DNA of 64,000 nt from Squalus acanthias (Eukaryota). Every line of letters starts with the position of its first letter. The stretch's first letter is position 1. Of this stretch, positions 4,433-36,608 are shown piece by piece. The notes below the pieces were generated by a model. The model ran no database searches. It was not told where the DNA came from and saw only the letters and a program-made list of their open reading frames with translations. The translations under genes and the position numbers were made by a program. The DNA lies in the NCBI GenBank assembly GCA_030390025.1, contig CM059446.1, positions 19,096,001 through 19,160,000 of the forward strand, in the 5' to 3' direction.

Positions 4433-4645
4433 CATGATGCGGAGATGCCGGCGTTGGACTGGGGTGGACAAAAATTAGAAGTCGCACAACACCAGGTTAT
4501 AGTCCGACAGATTTATTTAAAATTACAAGCTTTCGGAGCTGTCGCCCCTTCCTCAGGTACCTGAGGAAGGGGCGACAGCTCCGAAACCTTATAATTTTAA
4601 ATAAATCTGTTGGACTATAACCTGGTGTTGTGCGACTTCTAATTT
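4433..4645 (-). mobile_element. Penelope-like fold-back insertion (family A) with hammerhead-like motif
   Basis: Palindrome 4472-4645 centred on ggt|acc, 87-bp arms, 3 mismatches. Unpaired tail 4433-4471. Flanked by the 12-bp direct repeat ctattcttttgt (4421-4432, 4646-4657). Confidence 0.85.
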
Positions 4646-10075: not shown

Positions 10076-10403
10076 GTCATGTCTTTCGGACGAGACTTTA
10101 AACCGAGTCTGCCCTCTCAGGTGGACATAAAAGATCCCACGGCACTATTTCGAAGAAGAGCAGAGGAGTTCGCTCCGGTGTCCTGGCCAATATTTATCCC
10201 TCCACCAACATCACTAAAATAAGTTACCTGGTCATCGTCGCATTGCTGTTTGTGGGATCTTGCTGTGCGCAAATTGGCTGCCGCGTTCCCTAAATTTCAA
10301 CAGTGACTCCACTTCAAAAAAGGACTTCATTGGCTGTAAAGTGCTTTGGAATGTCCTGAGGTCATGAAAGGCGCTATATAAATGCAAATCTTTCCTTCTT
10401 TTC
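10076..10403 (+). mobile_element. DeuSINE (SacSINE1-like), 5'-truncated
   Basis: Deu domain aaagatcccacggcactatttcgaagaagagcag...cctggccaatatttatccc, plus L2-type tail gaaaggcgctatataaatgcaa. Confidence 0.88.
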
Positions 10404-10606
10404 TATAACACAAACAAGATGTAGAATAAAGTTTGCTACACTCTGCCTGAACAATGTTGAGACTGCTTCCAACTCATTTCACATTGAACCCTTGTAGACC
10501 ATAGTGTACTGTAGAGTGTAGGTTATACATAGCACTTCTAATTTTAGGGTGAAATCTGATAATTACCTCCCAAAGGATAGGCTTTATATTTTGGTTTAAA
10601 CCCAAT

Positions 10607-10938
10607 GAAAGAAAGAAGGAAAGAAAGACTTGCATTTCTATAGCGCCTTTCATGACCTCAGGATGTCCCAAAGCGCTTTACAGCCAATGAAGTACATTTT
10701 GAAGTGTAGTCGCTGTTGTAATGTAGGAAACGTGGCAGCCAATTTGCGCACAGCAAGCTCCCACAAACAGCAATGTGATAATGACCAGATAATGTTTTAG
10801 TGATGTTGACTGAGGGATAAATATTGGCCAGGACACTGGGGAGAACTCCCCTGCTCTTCTTCGAAATAGTGCCATGGGATCTTTTATGTCCACCTGAGAG
10901 AGCAGACGGGGCCTCGGTTTAACGTCTCATCTGAATGA
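10607..10938 (-). mobile_element. DeuSINE (SacSINE1-like), 5'-truncated
   Basis: Reverse complement of the Deu domain with a (gaaa)n tail. Confidence 0.88.
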
Positions 10939-10957: not shown

Positions 10958-11187
10958 AGAATAACAGGAAATGTTGGAAACGCTCAGCAGGTCAGGCAGC
11001 ATCTGCGGAGAAAGCAGAGGAGTTGTTTTGGGGTGTGAACCCTTTGCCAAAAGTTTTGACAAAAGGTCCACACTGAAAACGTTAGCACATCTGTCCTCCC
11101 CATAGATGTTGCCTGTCCTGCTGAGCGTTTCGAGCATTTTTTGTTTTTGTTTCAGATTTCCAGCATCTGCATTTTGTTTTGCTTTTC
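10958..11187 (+). mobile_element. Older Penelope-like fold-back copy (family B)
   Basis: ggaaacgctcagcaggtcaggcagcatctg pairs imperfectly with agatgttgcctgtcctgctgagcgtttc, followed by the tail cagatttccagcatctgcattttg. Confidence 0.65.
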
Positions 11188-11627: not shown

Positions 11628-11708
11628 CTTGTCACACGGTAATTACACCCTCTTCCTACTACAACAGCGCCACCACTGCCAGGGGGGGTGTAATTACCGT
11701 GTGACAAG
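11628..11708. repeat. 81-bp mini inverted repeat with perfect 23-bp arms
   Basis: cttgtcacacggtaattacaccc (11628-11650) / gggtgtaattaccgtgtgacaag (11686-11708). Confidence 0.9.
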
Positions 11709-11965: not shown

Positions 11966-12798
11966 GAGTGTCAGCTCTTCCAAAGCCAATTCTAAGCTTG
12001 GCTGAACTCTGGCCTGTTTGTACAGCTTTCCCTCCACTGCCTCAGGGTAAAATCAGTTAGAATGTTCCACTACCATGGCAACATCATCAGTATGGTCAAT
12101 TAAGCTCACCACACCTGTCCCTCGGCTGAAAGTGAACGACACCTAGTAACCAATTAGATTTCAGTATGCAAATATGCTACTGGATGACAAACGTTTTCTA
12201 CCAAGAGACTTTCACAGATATAAATATTTTAATGATTATTTTGGAAGGGCCATTCACAGCTACATTCAGATGTGGATTAATGTGGTTGCATTAAGCATAT
12301 CCATGGCAAAATACAGATACGAGAACATTTTCTCATCAGGTCCTGGATTGTTTCAGCCAGTTAGCACTGGTTAGCCATTCCTCTTTTGGACAAGTCTGAA
12401 TGTAAACTTTCCCTTAGCCTGTCCTGATTCCAGTCACAGGTCAGCGATTACCTTGAGTTATGTGGCTAGACTGGAGAAGCTGGGGTTGTTCTCCTACTGG
12501 AGCAGAGAAGGTTAAGTGGAGATTTGATAGAGGTGTTCAAAATCATGAACTGTTTTGTTAGAGTAAATAAGGAGAAACTGTTTCCAGTGGCAGAAGGTTC
12601 GATAACCAGCGGACACAGATTAAAGATGATTGGCAAAAAGAAGAGGCGACAGGAGGGAAAAAAAATGTTTTAAACACAGTGAGTTGTTGTGATTTAGAAT
12701 GCACTGCCTGAAAGGCTGGTGGAAGCAGATTCAATTGTAACTTTCAAAAGGGAATTGGATAAATACTTGAAGGGCATTTACAGGGCTATGGGGAAAGA

Positions 12799-13197
12799 AT
12801 TGAGAGGTCGCACAACACCAGGTTATAGTCCAACAGTTTTATTTGAAATCACAAGCTTTCGGAGCTATCGATTGCTCCTTCCTCAGGTGAAGTAAATTAG
12901 ATACAGAATCGCCAAAGCATATATAGATAGAAAACAAAGCATGTGTACTTTACAATTGCAGACCAATAAATTAAATCATCATAATTTAATTTATTGGTCT
13001 GCAATTGTAAAGTACACATGCTTTGTTTTCTATCTATATATGCTTTGGCGATTCTGTATCTAATTTACTTCACCTGAGGAAGGAGCAATCGATAGCTCCG
13101 AAAGCTTGTGATTTCAAATAAAACTGTTGGACTATAACCTGGTGTTGTGCGACCTCTCAATTTTGTCCACCCCAGTCCAACACCGGCATCTCCGCAT
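12799..13197 (+). mobile_element. Penelope-like fold-back insertion (family A) with hammerhead-like motif
   Basis: Perfect 179-bp inverted arms 12798-12976 / 12984-13162, 7-nt loop catcata, 35-nt tail 13163-13197, 12-bp TSD tatggggaaaga (12787-12798, 13198-13209). Confidence 0.9.
13070..13111 (+). ncRNA. Minimal type-I hammerhead ribozyme motif (PLE-associated)
   Basis: UCAC-CUGAGGA-A-GGAGC(aaucgaua)GCUCC-GAA-AGCU-U-GUGA: core CUGANGA/GAAA, 5-bp stem II, palindromic stem III AGCU, 4-bp stem I. Activity not shown. Confidence 0.6.
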
Positions 13198-13939
13198 TAT
13201 GGGGAAAGAGCAGGGGACTTTTATACTAATTGGACAGCTCTACCAAAGAGCCGGCACAAACACGATGGGCCGAATGGCCTCCTTCTGTGCTGTGTCATTC
13301 TATGATGCTAACCTCCTAGTCGACAAAGAGTTAACAAATGTGTAGCTTACTGATTAATCTTCTATATTCAGAGAGGTGATGATGACTGGCAGCATGCCAG
13401 ATGGTTTCCCTTAGTTTCTTTGTGCTTATTATTAGTCACTCACTGATAAAACCTCAATAACTTCCTTCCAAAAAAGTTTTAACGACTTTTATTTTCATCG
13501 TATTGTCTTTTAACAACGCACTTATTTGGGATTGTGAAGGAAACTAGGGGAATTGTTCAATGTAGAATTACAACTGAAGAAAATTGAAGACCCGTCAGCC
13601 ACAGAATTATTCAAAACAAAAGCCTAAGTGCAAGTAGACAACCTGTCTGCAGGCTTGTGCCAATACTGCTCTCGAGCCAACTCTTGGGTGGCATGACCCT
13701 TTCTGGTCTCTGAAGTTGCAATCCCATCCTCTGGGGAAGCTCCTATCATCTGTGCGATATCGAGGAAGTGCTGCTGTGGTCGTGACATGATGGGGTCGAT
13801 TTTCTGACCTGTGCTTGCAGTGGTCCACGCACTTCACTGTGGGTGAACGTTTGAAAAACCTGCCCTTATGAATGAGTTCAAACAAAATTATATTTATGAT
13901 ATGCACAGAGACCAGAGCCAACGTTCCCCCATTATCTTC

Positions 13940-23484: not shown

Positions 23485-23692
23485 GTATATTTGGACAGCG
23501 TTTGGAGGACACTGTGCAGTACGAGCGGAAGTTTGGAAAGCGCTTGGCTCCCTTGCTAGTTGAACAGTGTGTGGACTTTATCAGAGAGCATGGCCTCAAT
23601 GAAGAAGGGTTATTCCGCATGCCTGGGCAAGCCAACCTGGTCAAAGAACTCCAGGATTCTTTTGATTGCGGAGAAAAGCCTCTGTTTGACAG
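23485..23692 (+). CDS. ARHGAP22: Rho GTPase-activating protein 22, internal exon starting the RhoGAP domain (contains the arginine finger)
   Basis: Acceptor ttcttttcag|GT, donor AG|gtaatg. Translates (G)[68 protein letters not shown](R). GLFR arginine codon at 23616-23618. 208 nt. Confidence 0.95.
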
Positions 23693-24144
23693 GTAATGTA
23701 TGCTGAAGGCGATTCTTAAATTTACATCGTCAAGCACTCGAGGCTTCTGATGTTTATTTAAAGGAAAAATTAAATTTGAAGCCAATGCTTTTACTGTGTC
23801 ACTCAATGGCTTGCCGACTGAATTGCTTGAGTTGTTTGGGTCTCTTGAAATAACACACAACTACTTTGTCAACTAAATACAATTGGCAAATGATGTAATT
23901 CAGAACTGATCCTTCCTATGCAATGTTGTGAGAAGGTTTTTGCAGCATTGAGATGCAATAAATCACCAATAGTTACAAATTTTATACAGGAAGTGCCAGT
24001 CCTGAATAACCTTAAACTCAACATATTGACTTCAAACAGAATTGTGTGTGTCCAGTGAGTCATCATCCTTTTTTGCTCTCCTGCTTCTTCTTCATTCTAT
24101 CCTTTATTTAACTAATTAATGCTCTCTGTTCTACTCATGTACAG

Positions 24145-24607
24145 GTCAGCTGTGGCTCAGTGGGCAGCACCCTCGCCTCTGAGTCAGAAGGTTGTGGGTT
24201 CAGAGTCCCACTCCAGAGACTTGAGCACAAAAATCTAGGCTGACACTCCAGTGCAGTGCTGAGGGAGTGCTGCACTGTCGGAGGTGCCGTCTTTCGGATG
24301 AGATGTTAAACCGAGGCCCCGTCTGCTCTCTCAGGTGGACGTAAAAGATCCCATGGCACTATTTTGAAGAAGAGCAGGGGAGTTCTCCCCGGTGTCCTGG
24401 CCAATATTTATCCCTCAATCAACATCACTAAAACAGATTATCTGGTCATTATCATGTTGCTGTTTGTGGGACCTTGCTGTGCGCAAATTGGCTGCCGCAT
24501 TTCCCACATTACAACAGTGACTACACCTCAAATAATACTTAATTGGCTGTAAAGTGCTTTGAGTGGTTGTGAAAGGCGCTATAGAAATGCAAGTTTTTCT
24601 TTCTTTC
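24145..24607 (+). mobile_element. DeuSINE (SacSINE1-like), full length
   Basis: gtcagctgtggctcagtgggcagcac (A box), ggttcagagtccc (B box), Deu domain, (ttct)n tail. Confidence 0.92.
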
Positions 24608-26125
24608 ATTGGAACTTTTTACCCTATTTTCATTTTCTAAATGTAAAAGCTTTCACTTATCTCTTTACTTCAGTCTCTCTGGTTCCACTGTCCATTTTGG
24701 TGTGAGCCATTTTACAAAATAAGCTGCCCTTTGGCTAGAAAACTAGCCAGTTTTTGGCCAATTGAAAACCAGATTCTGTAGCTTTCACATGGTTATATCT
24801 GATCGATCTTGTATGTGTAAAAATGAACCCAGATATGGAAGATATTAGATTTACCAGCATCCATTGGATCGAAGATGATCTGCTGGGTTCCTGCTTATGA
24901 CCACCACTTCTAGGATTTTCTGCTGGAAGGAACGGGATATATTTGGCATCATTCATGCCCTAGCAACATTGGCTGCATTGAGGGCACTCATTCTCCACCC
25001 ACCTGAAATATACAGATGTGCTTGGCCTCAGGGTCAGGATGGGAAGCTAGTGGTGGACGATGAGGACACCCTTCCAGGGGATTATACCCACATTATGTTC
25101 AAGCACATCTTCACTGCAACAACAAAGACTATTTAAAATGGGGATAATACTGCACCCAGATTGAGGGAGCTTTCTGAAATACCTCCGTACAAAGGACCAG
25201 AACTTGAGAAGTTTGGATGAAAACACAACAACTCAGAGCTGAAGTAGTCTATCCTTTTTTTGATAGATCAGCTCCATCTACCTGCCTTCTCACCAAATCT
25301 CTCTCTCCTTTCTCTCCAGGAATACATCCAATTGCCTCTTGAACCTACTAATACTGTCAGCTTCACTGGCCTTCCCTATTTTACTTTTTGGGTGAAAAAG
25401 GTTTTGCCTGACTTCCTAATTTTCAACCCCGTGCCCCTGAAACCGTCGCCACAGCACACCATTTACCCACATTGAATTTATCAGTTCCCTCAATACGTTC
25501 AACACCTTCTATTGGCTTTTATCATTTCCAAAGATAAGTCCATTCCTTAAACCCTCAAAACATAAATTCCTGGTACCCGGAAACCTCATTGTTGCTCATC
25601 CATGTGCCCTCTCGAGGGGAATAACCTTTCGACTGGATCATGTCAAAGCTTTTTCCCAAGCACCAGCATTCTAAAACCTGGATAACTGGTGGGGACTGTG
25701 TATGCAAAGCAAAATATCGAGTTACCCATTGGGAGGTATGGATGGGACAATAATCTGTCTGCTTTAAATGCTATTTGGGGCATGTCATAGCTTACATATT
25801 GCAAAACTTGACATTTTTAAATAAAATGTTAAGTCCATTCCTAACACTGAAATTGAATTATTCCGATGGTTTAACTTTGAGTCATTTTCTATAGCGATCA
25901 CTAAGGCTTTGTAGACACAATTAGTAGCAATTCTCATTATTCCCTGTCCACGATATTAAGTTAATGCCTTTTTATGTGGACCAGCAGGAAGGGCAATTCG
26001 CCCTTCACTGGGCCATTCGTGCCACTGAGCTACTTCCGTGGGTCTGACAGCAAATGTTAGTTAATTGTGGTAGCGTTCTACAACTCCATGAATTGAATGA
26101 TTCACAATATTTTTTTTTGTTGCAG

Positions 26126-26258
26126 GAACACCGATGTTCACACGGTTGCATCCCTGCTGAAGCTGTATCTGAGGGAGTTGCCAGAGCCAGTGATCCCGTT
26201 TGCCAAGTATGAGGACTTCCTCTCATGTGCACAACTACTGGCTAAGGATGAAGAGGAG
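26126..26258 (+). CDS. ARHGAP22: ARHGAP22 RhoGAP exon
   Basis: Acceptor ttttgttgcag|G, donor GAG|gtacac. [44 protein letters not shown] with the classic Rho[13 protein letters not shown] motif. 133 nt, phase fits the previous exon. Confidence 0.95.
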
Positions 26259-26363
26259 GTACACCATACTGTGTTTTGTCCGGAATGCATAATCTCCTCT
26301 TTGCCAACATTCCTAGAAATTGGGCCATTCCATATTCCTTTTAGTAGACCATTTTATACTACA

Positions 26364-26775
26364 CTGGAGTATAGAAGAATGAGAGGGGATCTCATCGAAA
26401 CATATAAAATTCTGACAGGTCTGGACAAACTAGATGCAGGAAGAATGTTCCCGATGGTCGGAGAGACCAGAACCAGGGGTCATAATCTAAGGATAAGGGG
26501 TAAGCCATTTAGGACTGAGGTGAGGAAGAATTTCTTCACCCAGAGAGTGGTGAACCTGTGGAATTCTCTACCACAGAAGGTAGTTGAGGCCAAGTCATTA
26601 AATATATTCAAGAATGAGTTAGATATATTTCTTAAAGCTAAAGGTATCAAGGGATATGGGGAGAAGGCAGGGACAGGGTACTGAGTTTGGATGATCAGCC
26701 ATGATCTCATCGAATGGCGGAGCAGGCTCGAGGGGCCGAATGGCCTACTCTTGCTCCTATCTTCTATGTTTCTAT
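26364..26775 (+). mobile_element. CR1/HER1-type LINE 3' fragment, young
   Basis: Nearly identical to 734-1147; encodes [17 protein letters not shown]...[10 protein letters not shown]. Confidence 0.92.
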
Positions 26776-27870
26776 ATTTACCTCAATCTGGAACAGTTTC
26801 GGGTTTGCGTTGATTGAAACTGTCCAGTGTGATTTGGATGCCAAGTCGTCCAAAATACATTGAAGCAAGAGGTGTGAGACTGCCTCCAGGAGGTAGTTGA
26901 GCTTAACACTATATGCAAAGCCTATTTTAAGAAGCTCCTATTTTAAGAAGCTCCCAAGTGCTCCTGCTTGGCGTACATTAGTGGAGAGTCCCAAACGTTG
27001 AGGACAGACATTCATGCAGAGAGCTCTCTTGCCTTTGAGCAGAAGGCAGTAGAGGAGCTGGCAGTATAACTTGTGTCTACAGACCCAGCGAGGCACCTTT
27101 TATTTCTAAGTACGAGTACATGTAGCATAACTGGGTCTTGGATAAAATATCACAATTATTGGATGGTGACTGGCTCCCATGACAACCACACAGCAAAAGT
27201 GCCAATGCCAGCACAATAGAAGAAAACTGGTGGGGTGGGGGGGGGGCGGGGGAAAGCACTGGGCAATTATTGCTGTAGCTGAGCCACTACTTAATTCGGG
27301 TTTGGAGAGAAGGATTGATAATTTAATCTAAATAAAATTACGTAATACAATTAACATCGCCCCAATCGTGTGTCAAGGCAGTTCTCTGATAATCCGTGCC
27401 TTTTTCTCACTTGCCTTTTCCTTCTCTTCCATACTGGCTCATGCTGACGTGACCCAGTCCCACTATGTATATCAGTAAATACCCCTGCACTAACACTGCT
27501 GATAACCTGCCATACACCATTATAACAAAGACTGACCAAACTGCAAGTCTCTCTCAATGCATCATTGGTAAGGATACATTTTGCCAACAAAAATGCAGAA
27601 CCTCCCTCTTAACACCTATGACCTGGATACTGCTCAAGACTTTAGTCCTTATTTAAGGGAAAGACCTTAAAAGGATTTAAACCCAATGAAAAGAACCTGG
27701 GCAGGACCCATTTTTTTTTCCTTAAATTTTGTTTGACTGAGCTGTCGAGAGAACTGAAATCCTTGACACTAAAGCTGGATTTGCGCGACAACTGTAGTGT
27801 CCGCGCAAAGCAGGTCCACCTTCCCACAAACATTGCAGTTAGAGTGTAAAAGGAGCCTGAATTTGGTGGT

Positions 27871-28423
27871 ACAACAACAACAACTTGTATTTATATAGCG
27901 CCTTTAACGTAGTAAAACGTCCCAAGGCGCTGCACAGGAGTATTTTATGACAAAAAATTTGACACTGATCCGCATAAGGATAAATTAGGGCAGGTGACCA
28001 AAAGCTTGGTCAAAGAGGTAGGTTTTAAGGAGCGTCTTAAAGGAGGAAAGAGAGGTAGCGAGGCGGAGAGGTTTAGGGAGGGAATTCCAGAGCTTAGGGC
28101 CCAGGCAACAGAAGGCACGGCCACCAATGGTTGAGCGATTATAATCAGAGATGCTCAAGAGGGCAGAATTAGAGGAGCGCAGATATCTCGGAGGGGGGGG
28201 GGGGGGCGGCGGGGGGTGGTTGTGGGGCTGAAGGAGATTACAGAGATAGGGAGGGGCGAGGCAATGGAGGGATTTGAAAACAAGGATGAGAATTTTGAAA
28301 TCGAGGCGCTGCTTAACCGGGAGCCAATGTAGGTCAGCGAGCACAGGGGTGATGGGCGAACGGGACTTGGTGCGAGTTAGGACACGGGCAGCCGAGATTT
28401 GGATGACCTCATGTTTACGTAGG
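27871..28423 (-). mobile_element. L2 LINE 3' end
   Basis: Minus-strand ORF AARVLTRTKSRSPITPVLADLHWLPVKQRLDFKIL...GGRAF..LGPKLWNSLP; (caa)n tail. Confidence 0.92.
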
Positions 28424-29459
28424 TACCCGAGCAGACGCCACAATGAAGTGGATGGAGGCTCCCTGGAGGTGGGAATCTTGCTCCAATTTACTTGGGAGTC
28501 ATTTTGGGCCTTCACTCCCGATGTACAGTCCGAGATTAGCAGCAAGGCCAAGCAGTTGTGGCCTCGCACTGATGCTCAACATGCCGAGTGTGGCTGCATT
28601 GTTAAAGTAATTGAGCCACATCACCAACTTAACTATTAATTGGATGACTGCTAAACCTCTTACCACGGTAGTGCAAGTATTTTAATCTGTTAGCTTTCAC
28701 TTGCCTGAGCTTTGATTTCTCTGAAAATGTGAGTAAAAACAAATTTTTATATCAGGACAGATTTAATTAGAGAACTGCAGCAACAATGAGTTAGTTGAAC
28801 CAGTGTAGGGAGCTTTAAGGTTGTCGGACTTCAATGGTTACAGCCTCAATCTGTGAACAACCCTATGAAAAATTATGAATGAGATGAGGTCTTTGCACCC
28901 ATCTCTCGAATACCCTAACTGCCCCTTTTACAGCATCCAGTCTTATTTAAACATCTCGAAGTCTTTTGCTTCTAGCGGGCTGCGTGGCAGATTGTTCCAA
29001 ACGCTTATCGTGCTCTAAACACATGGGGGTAGAATTTCCCCAGGGGTTCTCCTAATCTCCTGCCTTAACCTCTGCGGAAATCCCAGAGAAATAGTGTAAA
29101 CGGCTGACTATGTTGTTTCACCGAGTTTCCGACCAAAGTTATGTCAGGAGAATCCCTGGTTATGGGGCTGAGGGGAAAGAGCGGGGGAGCGTCACTAATT
29201 GGATAGATAGCTCTTTCAAAGACCTGGCACAGGCACGATGGGCCAAATGGCCTCCCGTGCCTCTCGTGCAGAAGTTCTACTCCATGGTATGGCAGGACCC
29301 GGTAAAGATGGGTATTGAAACAAATATAGACTTTTTTTTTGAATGGTGAAGTGATGCAATGTTTGGGTGTGGAAAGCCTGCCCACAGCGCCCTGTCTATT
29401 TGTGGCACATCAAGTGAGCCCCATGTCCGAATTTGGAACAGGTTTAATTCACAAGACTA

Positions 29460-30095
29460 CCGCCCCGATTTTAACGCTGGGCCAGTTTTCGGCGGGCGAG
29501 GAGCAGTGAGAGTTAGCTCATCCAGAAACGAGACCCCCCCACTTCCCCGGGGTACTTAAAACTCCCGGGCTTCATTTAAATCCCACCAACCTGTTTTAGG
29601 CAGGAAGTCGATGGGAAGCAGCGGAAAATTGCGTGGGCCAGAAGCCGCCCACTGAGACCAGGTAAGAGGCGGGATTGGCTTCCAGGGCCTTTCTGCAAGG
29701 GTCCAGCGATCAGGGGAGAAGCCATTGAAAGGGAGTCCCAAGCTTCCCTGTGGGGTCAGGAGGTGCATTTAAATCATTTTTTTAAAGAAATGTACCTCTT
29801 CTGGCCCAGCCTCGACCCGCTTCTCCAATAGGCTGGCCTGGCGGGAATCTCACTCCCGCTTCCCGTTCAGACCGCCGAGTTAAAATTGCAGTCGGATCCC
29901 GATGACATCATCAAGAACTGGCATACACATGTTTAAAAAGGACCCCGGCAGTTTTGGGCCGGTTCCCTAGCCGCCTGCTCAGTTGAGCAGGTTACAGTTG
30001 CGATCTGGTGGATCTGTGGCGGGTAAGTAACCTGGATGGACTTTAACTGCCCACTTATCTGGTGTCCATTGGGCTGGTAAGGTTAAAATTGCCCT
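29460..30095. mobile_element. Non-autonomous TIR element (MITE-like)
   Basis: Imperfect termini ccccgattttaac / ggttaaaattgccc around a GC-rich interior; ends about 70 bp upstream of the 30165 exon. Confidence 0.55.
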
Positions 30096-30164
30096 GTAAA
30101 TGCTTTTTGAGTCTTCTATCTGAACTATAATGAGAATTAATAATCTGGTCTTGTTTTTATCCAG

Positions 30165-30238
30165 GGTGTCCAGGAACTGATCAAACAGGTCACTAGTCTG
30201 CCTCAGGCCAATTACAATCTCCTCAAATATATCTGCAG
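30165..30238 (+). CDS. ARHGAP22: ARHGAP22 RhoGAP exon
   Basis: Acceptor ttttatccag|GGT, donor AG|gtgggt. [24 protein letters not shown](R). 74 nt; too short for the ORF track, translated by hand. Confidence 0.93.
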
Positions 30239-31065
30239 GTGGGTGTTTTTTTTGCTATGACGAGGTTGAATGGGTGGGTGGTGAAGCATCTAATCGGGGC
30301 TAATGGTCACTAAAGCCATCACTGATCTGTTTCTCACCTATTCTGTGTGCTGCTCTACAAAATTTAACATTGCTTTACCTCTTCAATACTGGAAACAGAA
30401 TTACAGAACTGAATTTTGTCCGATTTTTGTGTGGAGGTTGTGGCTAGACTTGGTTTTTCTAATACAAGAGATTGGCAAAGTCAGTAGTGTTTAAGAAATG
30501 GTTGGAACACCTAATTCCAAGACAGAAAGCCGAAAGTTTGAAATTCCAAAGCTGTTTGACTGCCATTGCACGGACTTTGTCTTAGCTTTGGGTAGATTTA
30601 GTCACATTTTTGTCATACTTTTAGATGGACAGTGATGTGAAATGGTGGAGTGGCAGCTTCTTGCTGTTTTATTAACAGCAGTCTTAATAGCTCACTCCTG
30701 GTAGTTTTTTTTCTATGCCCATTTTAGGGGTGGGGTGGGGAAGTCTTGCCAGACACTTGCCACATCTTCCTCCCTTGACTGTAACCCAGTCACCCCCTGA
30801 TGTCCAAGCATTGGTTTGGCAAGAATCTGATCGGGAAGAGTCTGTGATACTGTTGAACTGCAAAATTTTGATGGTGTGATATTTTGCATTTGGGCAGAAG
30901 AAGATACATTACCTCTCTGTGGGGGGGGGGTGAATGGCTGCCACCAAGTGCAGGTAAATGCAACCCAACCTGTCAAAGGCACAGATTTCTTTGTTCACAT
31001 CCAACAGATGAATAATCCAAGTGAACCAAGAAGCCTTTAATTGGACAAAATATGAAGAATTGTCA

Positions 31066-31087
31066 GTGTGTGTGTGTGTGTGTGTGT
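31066..31087. repeat. (GT)n microsatellite
   Basis: Run of about 11 gt units. Confidence 0.9.
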
Positions 31088-31221
31088 ATGTGCTCTAATT
31101 GGTGCATATTATATACCTTTGATGTGGAACTAAAAGACCATTTCAGCAAAATGCAGCAGATGGGGGTTATACTGTATTTTGACTGACTTGTCCCTTCTAA
31201 TATTGGCCATGTTATTTGTAG

Positions 31222-31343
31222 GTTCCTTGATGAAGTTCAGTCTTATTCAAGTGTTAATAAAATGAGTGTCCAAAACCTCGCAACTGTCTTTGGACCAAAT
31301 ATCTTGCGTCCAAAACTGGAAGACCCAGTGACTATTATGGAAG
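31222..31343 (+). CDS. ARHGAP22: ARHGAP22 RhoGAP exon
   Basis: Acceptor ttatttgtag|G, donor G|gtatgc. [40 protein letters not shown](G) with the NKM..NLA.VFGPN RhoGAP motif. 122 nt. Confidence 0.95.
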
Positions 31344-36180: not shown

Positions 36181-36608
36181 TTTCGTTTAGGCACGCTACA
36201 GCCCTCTGGACTCAATATCGAGTTCAACAATTTTAGATCATAACCTTAGCCCCAATCACATTTATATTTTATTTTTTCATCCACCCTTTTATTTGCCCTC
36301 CCCCCCTTTTTTTTCCCTCCTAGAAGCTGGCAGCTGTCCTTCATTCTGCCAGTGTACTTCACACTTCTTTCAGCCTTAACCTGTCACATTAACACCACCT
36401 CTTGCCTTGAATATCTCTTAATGTCTCTTAATCTCTCCTTTTGTTCTTTCATCCCTTCCCCCTTTTCCCAGCTTTATCCTTGCCTTAACTGTTTGATTTC
36501 CTGCTGTTTCCAGTTCTGATGAAAGGTCTCGACCTGAAACGTTAACTCTGTTTCTCTCTCCACGGATGCTGCCTCGCCTGCTGAGTTTTTCCAGCGTTTT
36601 CTGTTGTT
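36181..36608 (+). mobile_element. Penelope-like element 3' fragment (family B): ORF end, 3' UTR and hammerhead motif
   Basis: 36181-36243 encodes FRLGTLQPSGLNIEFNNFRS*, the L.T..P.GLN GIY-YIG C-terminal motif of PLEs. Pyrimidine-rich UTR. 13-bp flanking direct repeat actacagctaact (36169-36181, 36609-36621). Confidence 0.85.
36512..36547 (+). ncRNA. Minimal type-I hammerhead ribozyme motif (PLE-associated)
   Basis: AGUU-CUGAUGA-A-AGGUC(uc)GACCU-GAA-ACGU-U-AACU. Confidence 0.62.

Follow-up and report, generated by a model that had tools for sequence, protein, structure and literature searches.

A perfect hairpin in a Squalus acanthias intron is probably a dead-end Penelope-like insertion at a loosely palindromic target

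The window analysed here is a 64,000-nucleotide stretch of Squalus acanthias DNA (contig CM059446.1, positions 19,096,001 to 19,160,000) that carries a hairpin insertion at 12787-13209. Because it is flanked by a PH-end exon, which precedes the window by about 4.4 kb, and by RhoGAP exons on the + strand (Table 1), the insertion lies within an intron of about 28 kb. The initial annotation had considered that it might lie in ARHGAP22 pre-mRNA: its position in an intron of a + strand RhoGAP gene holds, and the gene is putatively ARHGAP22. The insertion splits the 3' end of a LINE, presumably a CR1. The earlier description of a split CR1 3' UTR is correct as to a LINE 3' end; translations place the break at the end of the decayed ORF2, on the border to the 3' UTR.

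Table 1. Features of the window at and around the hairpin insertion.
Feature	Position	Strand	Remark
Sister-subfamily hairpin in the same intron, 12-bp duplication	4437..4645	-	
Decayed LINE 3' end split by the insertion	12451..13310	+	Flanks collinear with other copies, 76-80% over about 450 nt
Left half of target motif, GGGC here (consensus TGGC)	12783..12786	+	
Left target-site duplication	12787..12798	+	Final base also counts as arm; 11 or 12 bp
Inverted, tail-less, 5'-truncated copy of 3' UTR and pLTR	12798..12980	-	L108 alignment
Minimal type I hammerhead motif, mirror of 13070-13111	12849..12890	-	
Direct 5'-truncated copy of 3' UTR and pLTR	12981..13162	+	L108 alignment
Minimal type I hammerhead	13070..13111	+	Stem I 13070-13073/13108-13111, core CUGAGGA, predicted cut after 13107
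35-nt tail; parent's equivalent ends at ORF start codon	13163..13197	+	
Right target-site duplication	13198..13209	+	
Right half of target motif, AGCAG (consensus GCCAG), 11-nt-spacer frame	13209..13213	+	10.9 bits; site is a training-set member
Three RhoGAP-domain exons of host gene	23550..31315	+	

A letter-level check of the window confirmed, base for base, the perfect 179-nt arms (12798-12976 and 12984-13162, exact reverse complements with CATCATA between them), the one-sided 35-nt tail, the duplication and the hammerhead motifs on both strands, where CTGAGGA-stem II-GAAAGCTT starts at 13074 (+) and 12886 (-). The duplicated sequence TATGGGGAAAGA is present on both sides and the match stops there, with no longer repeat. 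Base 12798 belongs to both the duplication and the left arm, and the duplication is accordingly 11 or 12 bp long; the 12 bp given initially counts this base twice. Alignment to L108, an intact element copy and the closest parent of the insertion, matches the left arm through 12980 with 1 mismatch in 183 nt and the right arm plus tail from 12981 with 2 mismatches in 217 nt; one substitution, at 12983, lies close to the hairpin tip. Because the two aligned arms meet at 12980/12981, the CATCATA first described as a 7-nt loop does separate the arms but is element sequence from two abutting truncated copies, not foreign DNA. On this alignment the insert consists of two 5'-truncated 3' ends, set head to head, of an abundant Penelope-like element (PLE) of the Neptune type, and the hairpin is almost certainly a PLE truncation product.

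The 37-nt junction at the centre of the hairpin occurs once in the 3.7-Gb genome, and because it is unique the hairpin must have been built in place and never have spread. What had been called an ORF-less element is instead a one-off truncation product of an ORF-bearing parent: an ordinary, recent, dead-end insertion among thousands. Its short, ORF-less body, terminal inverted structure and duplication would also suit a non-autonomous hairpin, MITE-like or retrozyme-like, that moves as a unit, and PLE-derived non-autonomous retrozymes exist (bioRxiv 10.64898/2026.07.22.740005). However, with a single occurrence of the centre junction, arms of about 85 to 2,900 nt across the family, a tail on one end and no tandem array at the site, such an origin is extremely improbable. 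We rejected a MITE or other non-autonomous hairpin family on the unique junction, variable lengths and asymmetric ends, a non-LTR retrozyme on the head-to-head rather than head-to-tail arrangement with hammerheads on opposite strands, and a miRNA precursor because all Rfam matches were below gathering scores and reflect a generic hairpin.

Family copy counts were taken as exact pattern matches. A 34-nt stretch across the arm end and tail gave 8,671 in the 3.7-Gb genome (4,390 + 4,281), a 30-nt arm stretch 20,243, and the pLTR-ORF junction 318. A full element, L031, was located through a pair of matches 3.1 kb apart; it consists of a 141-nt direct repeat, ORF, 3' UTR and pLTR. This full-length copy (L031 2678-8855) is preceded by a 2.9-kb inverted arm at 99.3%, and its ORF is frameshifted within the endonuclease domain. 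Among 21 pLTR-ORF junctions in 16 fetched stretches, 13 were followed by an uninterrupted ORF of 891 or 892 aa, six by a broken one, and two ran off the stretch. The pLTR arises from a tandem or partial-tandem arrangement, seen as the 141-nt direct repeat in L031 and as a tandem period of 3138 on contig C2. On that contig, L102 (C2:211213565-211223019) is a tandem array in which the pLTR-ORF junction recurs four times at intervals of 3137-3138 bp; its ORFs are intact, and it is a candidate source locus.

The 892-aa parent protein matches RVT_1 (Pfam, E 1.4e-8) and has DKG and YIDD motifs; its structural model (pLDDT 92) returned telomerase RTs as all of its top 10 fold matches. At the C terminus a GIY-YIG domain scores E 2.1e-4 and 22 bits, just under the curated Pfam cut-off of 22.6. 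The GIY-YIG/CCHH residues Y792, C796, C800, Y805, G807, R816 and H836 are kept in 69-70 of 72 aligned proteins and H842 of the CCHH in 56 of 72, while the linker between RT and endonuclease (EN), C753-x4-C758-x2-C761 (CX4CX2C), is kept in 66-69 of 72. The parent thus has the characters by which EN+ PLEs are recognised: a telomerase-like RT in a single ORF, GIY-YIG with CCHH, pLTR tandems, and an inverted copy with a tail. The PLE origin proposed initially is upheld by such parents, with intact RT and GIY-YIG ORFs, in the same genome. A CX2-5CxxC linker marks Neptune, that of Nematis is related, and Penelope and Poseidon are described without it (PMC8557442); linker and domain motifs mark the parent as a putative Neptune or Nematis element rather than Penelope or Poseidon. 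It shares with that clade an RT followed by a C-terminal GIY-YIG with CCHH and a CX2-5CxxC-type linker, and differs in that the sampled shark copies are not in microsatellites.

In a related organism whose flanks are about 95-97% alike, represented by a single run from a single study, two contigs part from the window sequence at 12798 and resume at 13210-13239 (29/30), a flank word that is unique in the shark genome. These contigs represent the empty site with one copy of the duplication. Together with the 99% match to L108, the empty site supports the proposal that the insertion is recent. Perfect palindromes are a recognised artefact of assembly and sequencing, and in the read runs compared no assembled contig spans the insertion; in two same-species samples, contigs break in repeats on both sides of it. 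A fold-back artefact would not, however, come with duplicated target DNA, the tail usual for the family, a target motif and an orthologous site that lacks the insert, and the same layout recurs in 69 of 90 copies. We give this explanation almost no credence; neither an assembly artefact nor a MITE without a PLE parent fits the findings.

The hairpin could also have been recruited as, or be acting as, a double-stranded RNA (dsRNA) regulator of the host RhoGAP gene, a substrate for Dicer or ADAR. It is intronic, lies on a transcribed strand and is predicted to fold with -322.5 kcal/mol, and siRNAs from Penelope inverted repeats have been reported, mapping to inverted Penelope regions in transgenic flies (PMC3681739). 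Given that publication, the suggested Dicer or ADAR step is not new for Penelope. Against a regulatory role, the orthologous site of the related organism lacks the insertion, and nothing singles out the window copy: the surrounding 174 kb hold 9 inverted pairs and 3 single arms of this PLE family group, and there are thousands of pairs genome-wide. A regulator is very unlikely, and no host function is implied for the hairpin. Thousands of perfect intronic hairpins also lend themselves to the study of how a vertebrate deals with dsRNA from transposons.

The hammerhead motif consists of a 4-bp stem I, the core CUGAGGA, a bulged A, a 5-bp stem II and GAAA-GC-UU, with no stable stem III. When 24 of 73 variants were aligned, 97.7% of cells were paired versus 24-49% in slid controls, the rows being related and the shuffle counts not probabilities; in 8 of the 24 rows a C-G pair of stem I is changed to U-A. 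The minimal hammerhead annotated initially thus stands, as a putative ribozyme, on a conserved core, conserved stems and compensatory changes in stem I. An Rfam search returned no hammerhead match, only generic hairpin matches below the gathering score, and the stability of arm plus tail is ordinary outside the palindrome (fold z -0.16). As the host gene is transcribed, the antisense arm precedes the hammerhead and would base-pair to it, so that the motif is predicted to be masked or inactive. The sequestration of the ribozyme in dsRNA suggested earlier is in line with the fold energies, -322.5 kcal/mol for the hairpin versus -13 for the local fold. The hammerhead would be mere cargo that the pLTR carries along.

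Published minimal hammerheads of metazoan PLEs occur as opposite-strand pairs 100-700 bp apart and do not cleave as monomers (PMC4209133). Those motifs and the shark motif have in common a short stem I, a bulged base before stem II, palindromic positions 15.2-16.2 and the lack of a stable stem III; the Schistosoma motifs have a stem II of 7-8 bp, compared with 5 bp here (PMC4209133). For an anole PLE, hammerhead cleavage is protein-assisted and dispensable in vitro (PMC11167929). Hammerhead cleavage as the source of the truncation points is not favoured: of 85 short truncation ends, 5 lie 91-94 nt from the 3' end, at the predicted cut, and 33 lie 129-134 nt from it, about 40 nt upstream. The latter hot spot, a short way upstream of the hammerhead, could mark where transcription from the pLTR begins, which is a guess.

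To place the window copy within its family, we took the first 91 matches on contig C1, which is not a random draw; they yielded 89 insertions, to which the window copy was added. L010 was merged with L011, L082 (an internal junction) was dropped, L068 (nested in another copy) was kept out of the duplication set, and L031, L032, L041 and L075 were left out of the 65 arm pairs. An inverted arm adjoins the truncated 5' end in 69 of the 90 sampled copies, and of the 65 pairs that could be scored, 61 have its outer end 28-41 nt before the 3' end is reached. Duplications were detected in 73/90 copies, the commonest runs being 12 (27), 13 (20) and 14 (10) nt with microhomology included. The arms do not differ at all in 39 of the 65 sampled inverted pairs of the subfamily; the perfect identity of the window hairpin is far beyond chance yet unremarkable within its subfamily.

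Much of this architecture is known from EN+ PLEs, in which an inverted 5'-truncated copy with a one-sided tail of 30-40 bp has been illustrated (PMC8557442, Fig. 2 legend) and of which Pen2a_Av has an inverted pLTR, a 31-bp tail and a 9-bp target-site duplication (PMC3846280). The shark copies and those of PMC8557442/PMC3846280 have in common the inverted truncated copy, the tail at one end, a short duplication, a pLTR ending at the ORF start, and partial and full tandems. They differ in the target: the shark duplication centres on 12 bp within a palindromic motif, whereas a microsatellite bias is given there for Neptune, Naiad and Chlamys. The hairpin architecture, the opposite-strand hammerheads and siRNA from Penelope inverted repeats are all already published.

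Duplications had been called without use of flank sequence. At 23 non-redundant sites with a 12-nt run, the left side has T at -4 in 18, G at -3 in 22 and G at -2 in 18, and the right side C at +2 in 13, C at +3 in 21 and A at +4 in 20; TG..N12..CA is present in 17/23, versus 0.55% of background positions. A symmetric matrix was trained on these 23 sites, a site passing if it scored above 95% of its own flanks (p<0.05). Held-out sites with 13-17-nt runs passed in 16 of 20 cases, as did 6/6 inverted copies among 9 further loci. A spacer of 12 was best in 35 of 50 non-training sites; the window copy scores best with 11. Genome-wide, TGG stands at the predicted distance before an arm 544 times versus 46 for the control CCA, a count of 544 in which one LINE hot spot supplies a visible share of the listed TGG rows. 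The fit is weaker in relatives, with 4 of 11 sites of a sister subfamily and 2 of 6 older neighbours, and the window's second hairpin (Table 1) does not fit (p 0.375). The motif carries about 9 bits (2.5 sites per kb); it is a preference and not a homing site.

Young copies thus insert at a loose palindrome, TGG(C)-N12-(G)CCA, a family-level addition that is modest and testable. We found no report of a palindromic PLE target motif in a search of the main texts of freely accessible papers, and passages of bioRxiv 10.64898/2026.07.22.740005, PMC12910113 and PMC9977147 give no target motif beyond microsatellite targeting. Fourteen of 73 sites (L005, L016, L023 and 11 more) lie at one position of a LINE-like repeat with differing truncation points, which makes it a recurrent hot spot. 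Besides it there are five smaller clusters of 2-4 sites; the 70% clustering threshold may merge two related repeats.

On either strand of the insertion the flank is followed by the duplication and this by the element in antisense, an order that reverse transcription primed from both 3' ends would produce. The symmetry of the target motif favours two staggered nicks, each serving as such a primer. Our preferred reading, with a probability of roughly 0.7, is that the window hairpin is a dead-end insertion by a Neptune-type PLE with an intact parent, in which both strands were nicked 11-12 bp apart at a loose palindrome and each end served as a primer. The element's endonuclease would nick each strand just 5' of (G)CCA, 11-12 bp apart, leaving 3' overhangs, and both nicked 3' ends would prime reverse transcription of the element's 3' end, one starting at the tail end and the other about 35 nt inside. 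Both copies would stop early and be joined head to head, and gap filling would yield the duplication. By the geometry of the site, primer-template pairing would not explain the half-sites, because both are outside the duplicated bases; with each nick 5' of (G)CCA, the motif would lie beyond the nick and outside the primer.

The arm pairs bear on how the two copies were templated. Arm lengths are coupled (rho 0.74): 36 of 65 pairs agree within 20 nt, and among the 32 long pairs 11 differ by no more than 25 nt, where shuffling gives 2.0. Both arms carry the same stem II variant in 34 of 40 pairs, versus 5.7 when shuffled. Coupled lengths and shared variants suggest that the arms of a pair mostly derive from a single RNA or a single source, and in the two-primer mechanism one RNA, or two from one source, would usually template both ends. 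Where the arms are unequal (29 pairs), the longer one lacks the tail in 21 cases and has it in 8 (p 0.024). In one copy, L050, each arm carries a different stem II variant, both recurrent elsewhere.

With the same element and target, the inverted arm could instead arise by fold-back, a cDNA or antisense template priming itself at the truncation point, copying itself and joining the other cut end. Coupled arm lengths, short overlaps at the centre, the 34/40 pairs with identical stem II variants and the 39/65 difference-free pairs all agree with this, and self-priming has been proposed from junction palindromes (PMC3846280). However, either arm can exceed the other by hundreds of bases, more often the tail-less one, L050 arms carry two variants, and fold-back offers no reason for a fixed 28-41-nt tail, which fits the two RT starts of PMC11167929. 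The tail-less-arm excess (21 vs 8) and L050 count against strict fold-back, which we consider unlikely, and we regard two-primer insertion as probable. Its weak points are that L050 is a single case that could be gene conversion, and that the window copy deviates, with GGGC instead of TGGC and an 11-nt spacer.

In L1 twin priming, the second target strand primes a second cDNA and a 5' inversion results; annealing of the second primer is internal there, and the arms are free of overlap. In the shark copies, in contrast, the two starts lie no more than about 35 nt apart at one 3' end, which makes the product a palindrome. A further comparison is with PAc, a Poseidon element of Anolis carolinensis, for which both strands are cleaved and extended in vitro and two RT starts bound the tail (PMC11167929). 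A tail bounded by two start sites matches the two-primer reading of the shark copies. PAc, a predicted dimer, prefers ATT and starts 111-118 nt inside the ORF (PMC11167929), whereas the shark element has a tail reaching only to the start codon and a bipartite, GC-rich motif. The origin of PLE inverted arms and tails has been stated as open, with a guess that cleavage properties of the endonuclease decide it (PMC8557442).

We see an even chance that GIY-YIG reads the bipartite palindrome TGG(C)-N12-(G)CCA and that a dimer nicks both strands symmetrically, the 12-nt 3' overhangs priming so as to give duplication, inverted arm and tail together. If true, this would be a sequence-read, two-fold symmetric target in a class of retrotransposons for which descriptions to date give a bias to AT-rich DNA or microsatellites, and a defined substrate for working out PLE integration. 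A symmetric target of fixed stagger, a recently active and intact 892-aa protein and thousands of near-identical insertions open the PLE question to direct tests, both in vitro and on the genome itself. The window insertion itself is of little weight; the family-level result may matter to PLE specialists.

Several other repeats lie in the window. The sister-subfamily hairpin is 86-89% alike to the main copy and folded back just before the hammerhead. An 81-bp MITE-like element at 11628-11708 has perfect 23-bp terminal inverted repeats. Inverted pairs of the end of another short repeat lie at 10317-10700 and 1382-1572, 88-91% complementary. A second hammerhead-bearing repeat family (CUGAnGA...GAAAC) occurs at 36516 (+) and 42665 (-), and 10960-11148 looks like a decayed inverted pair of the CUGAnGA...GAAAC family.
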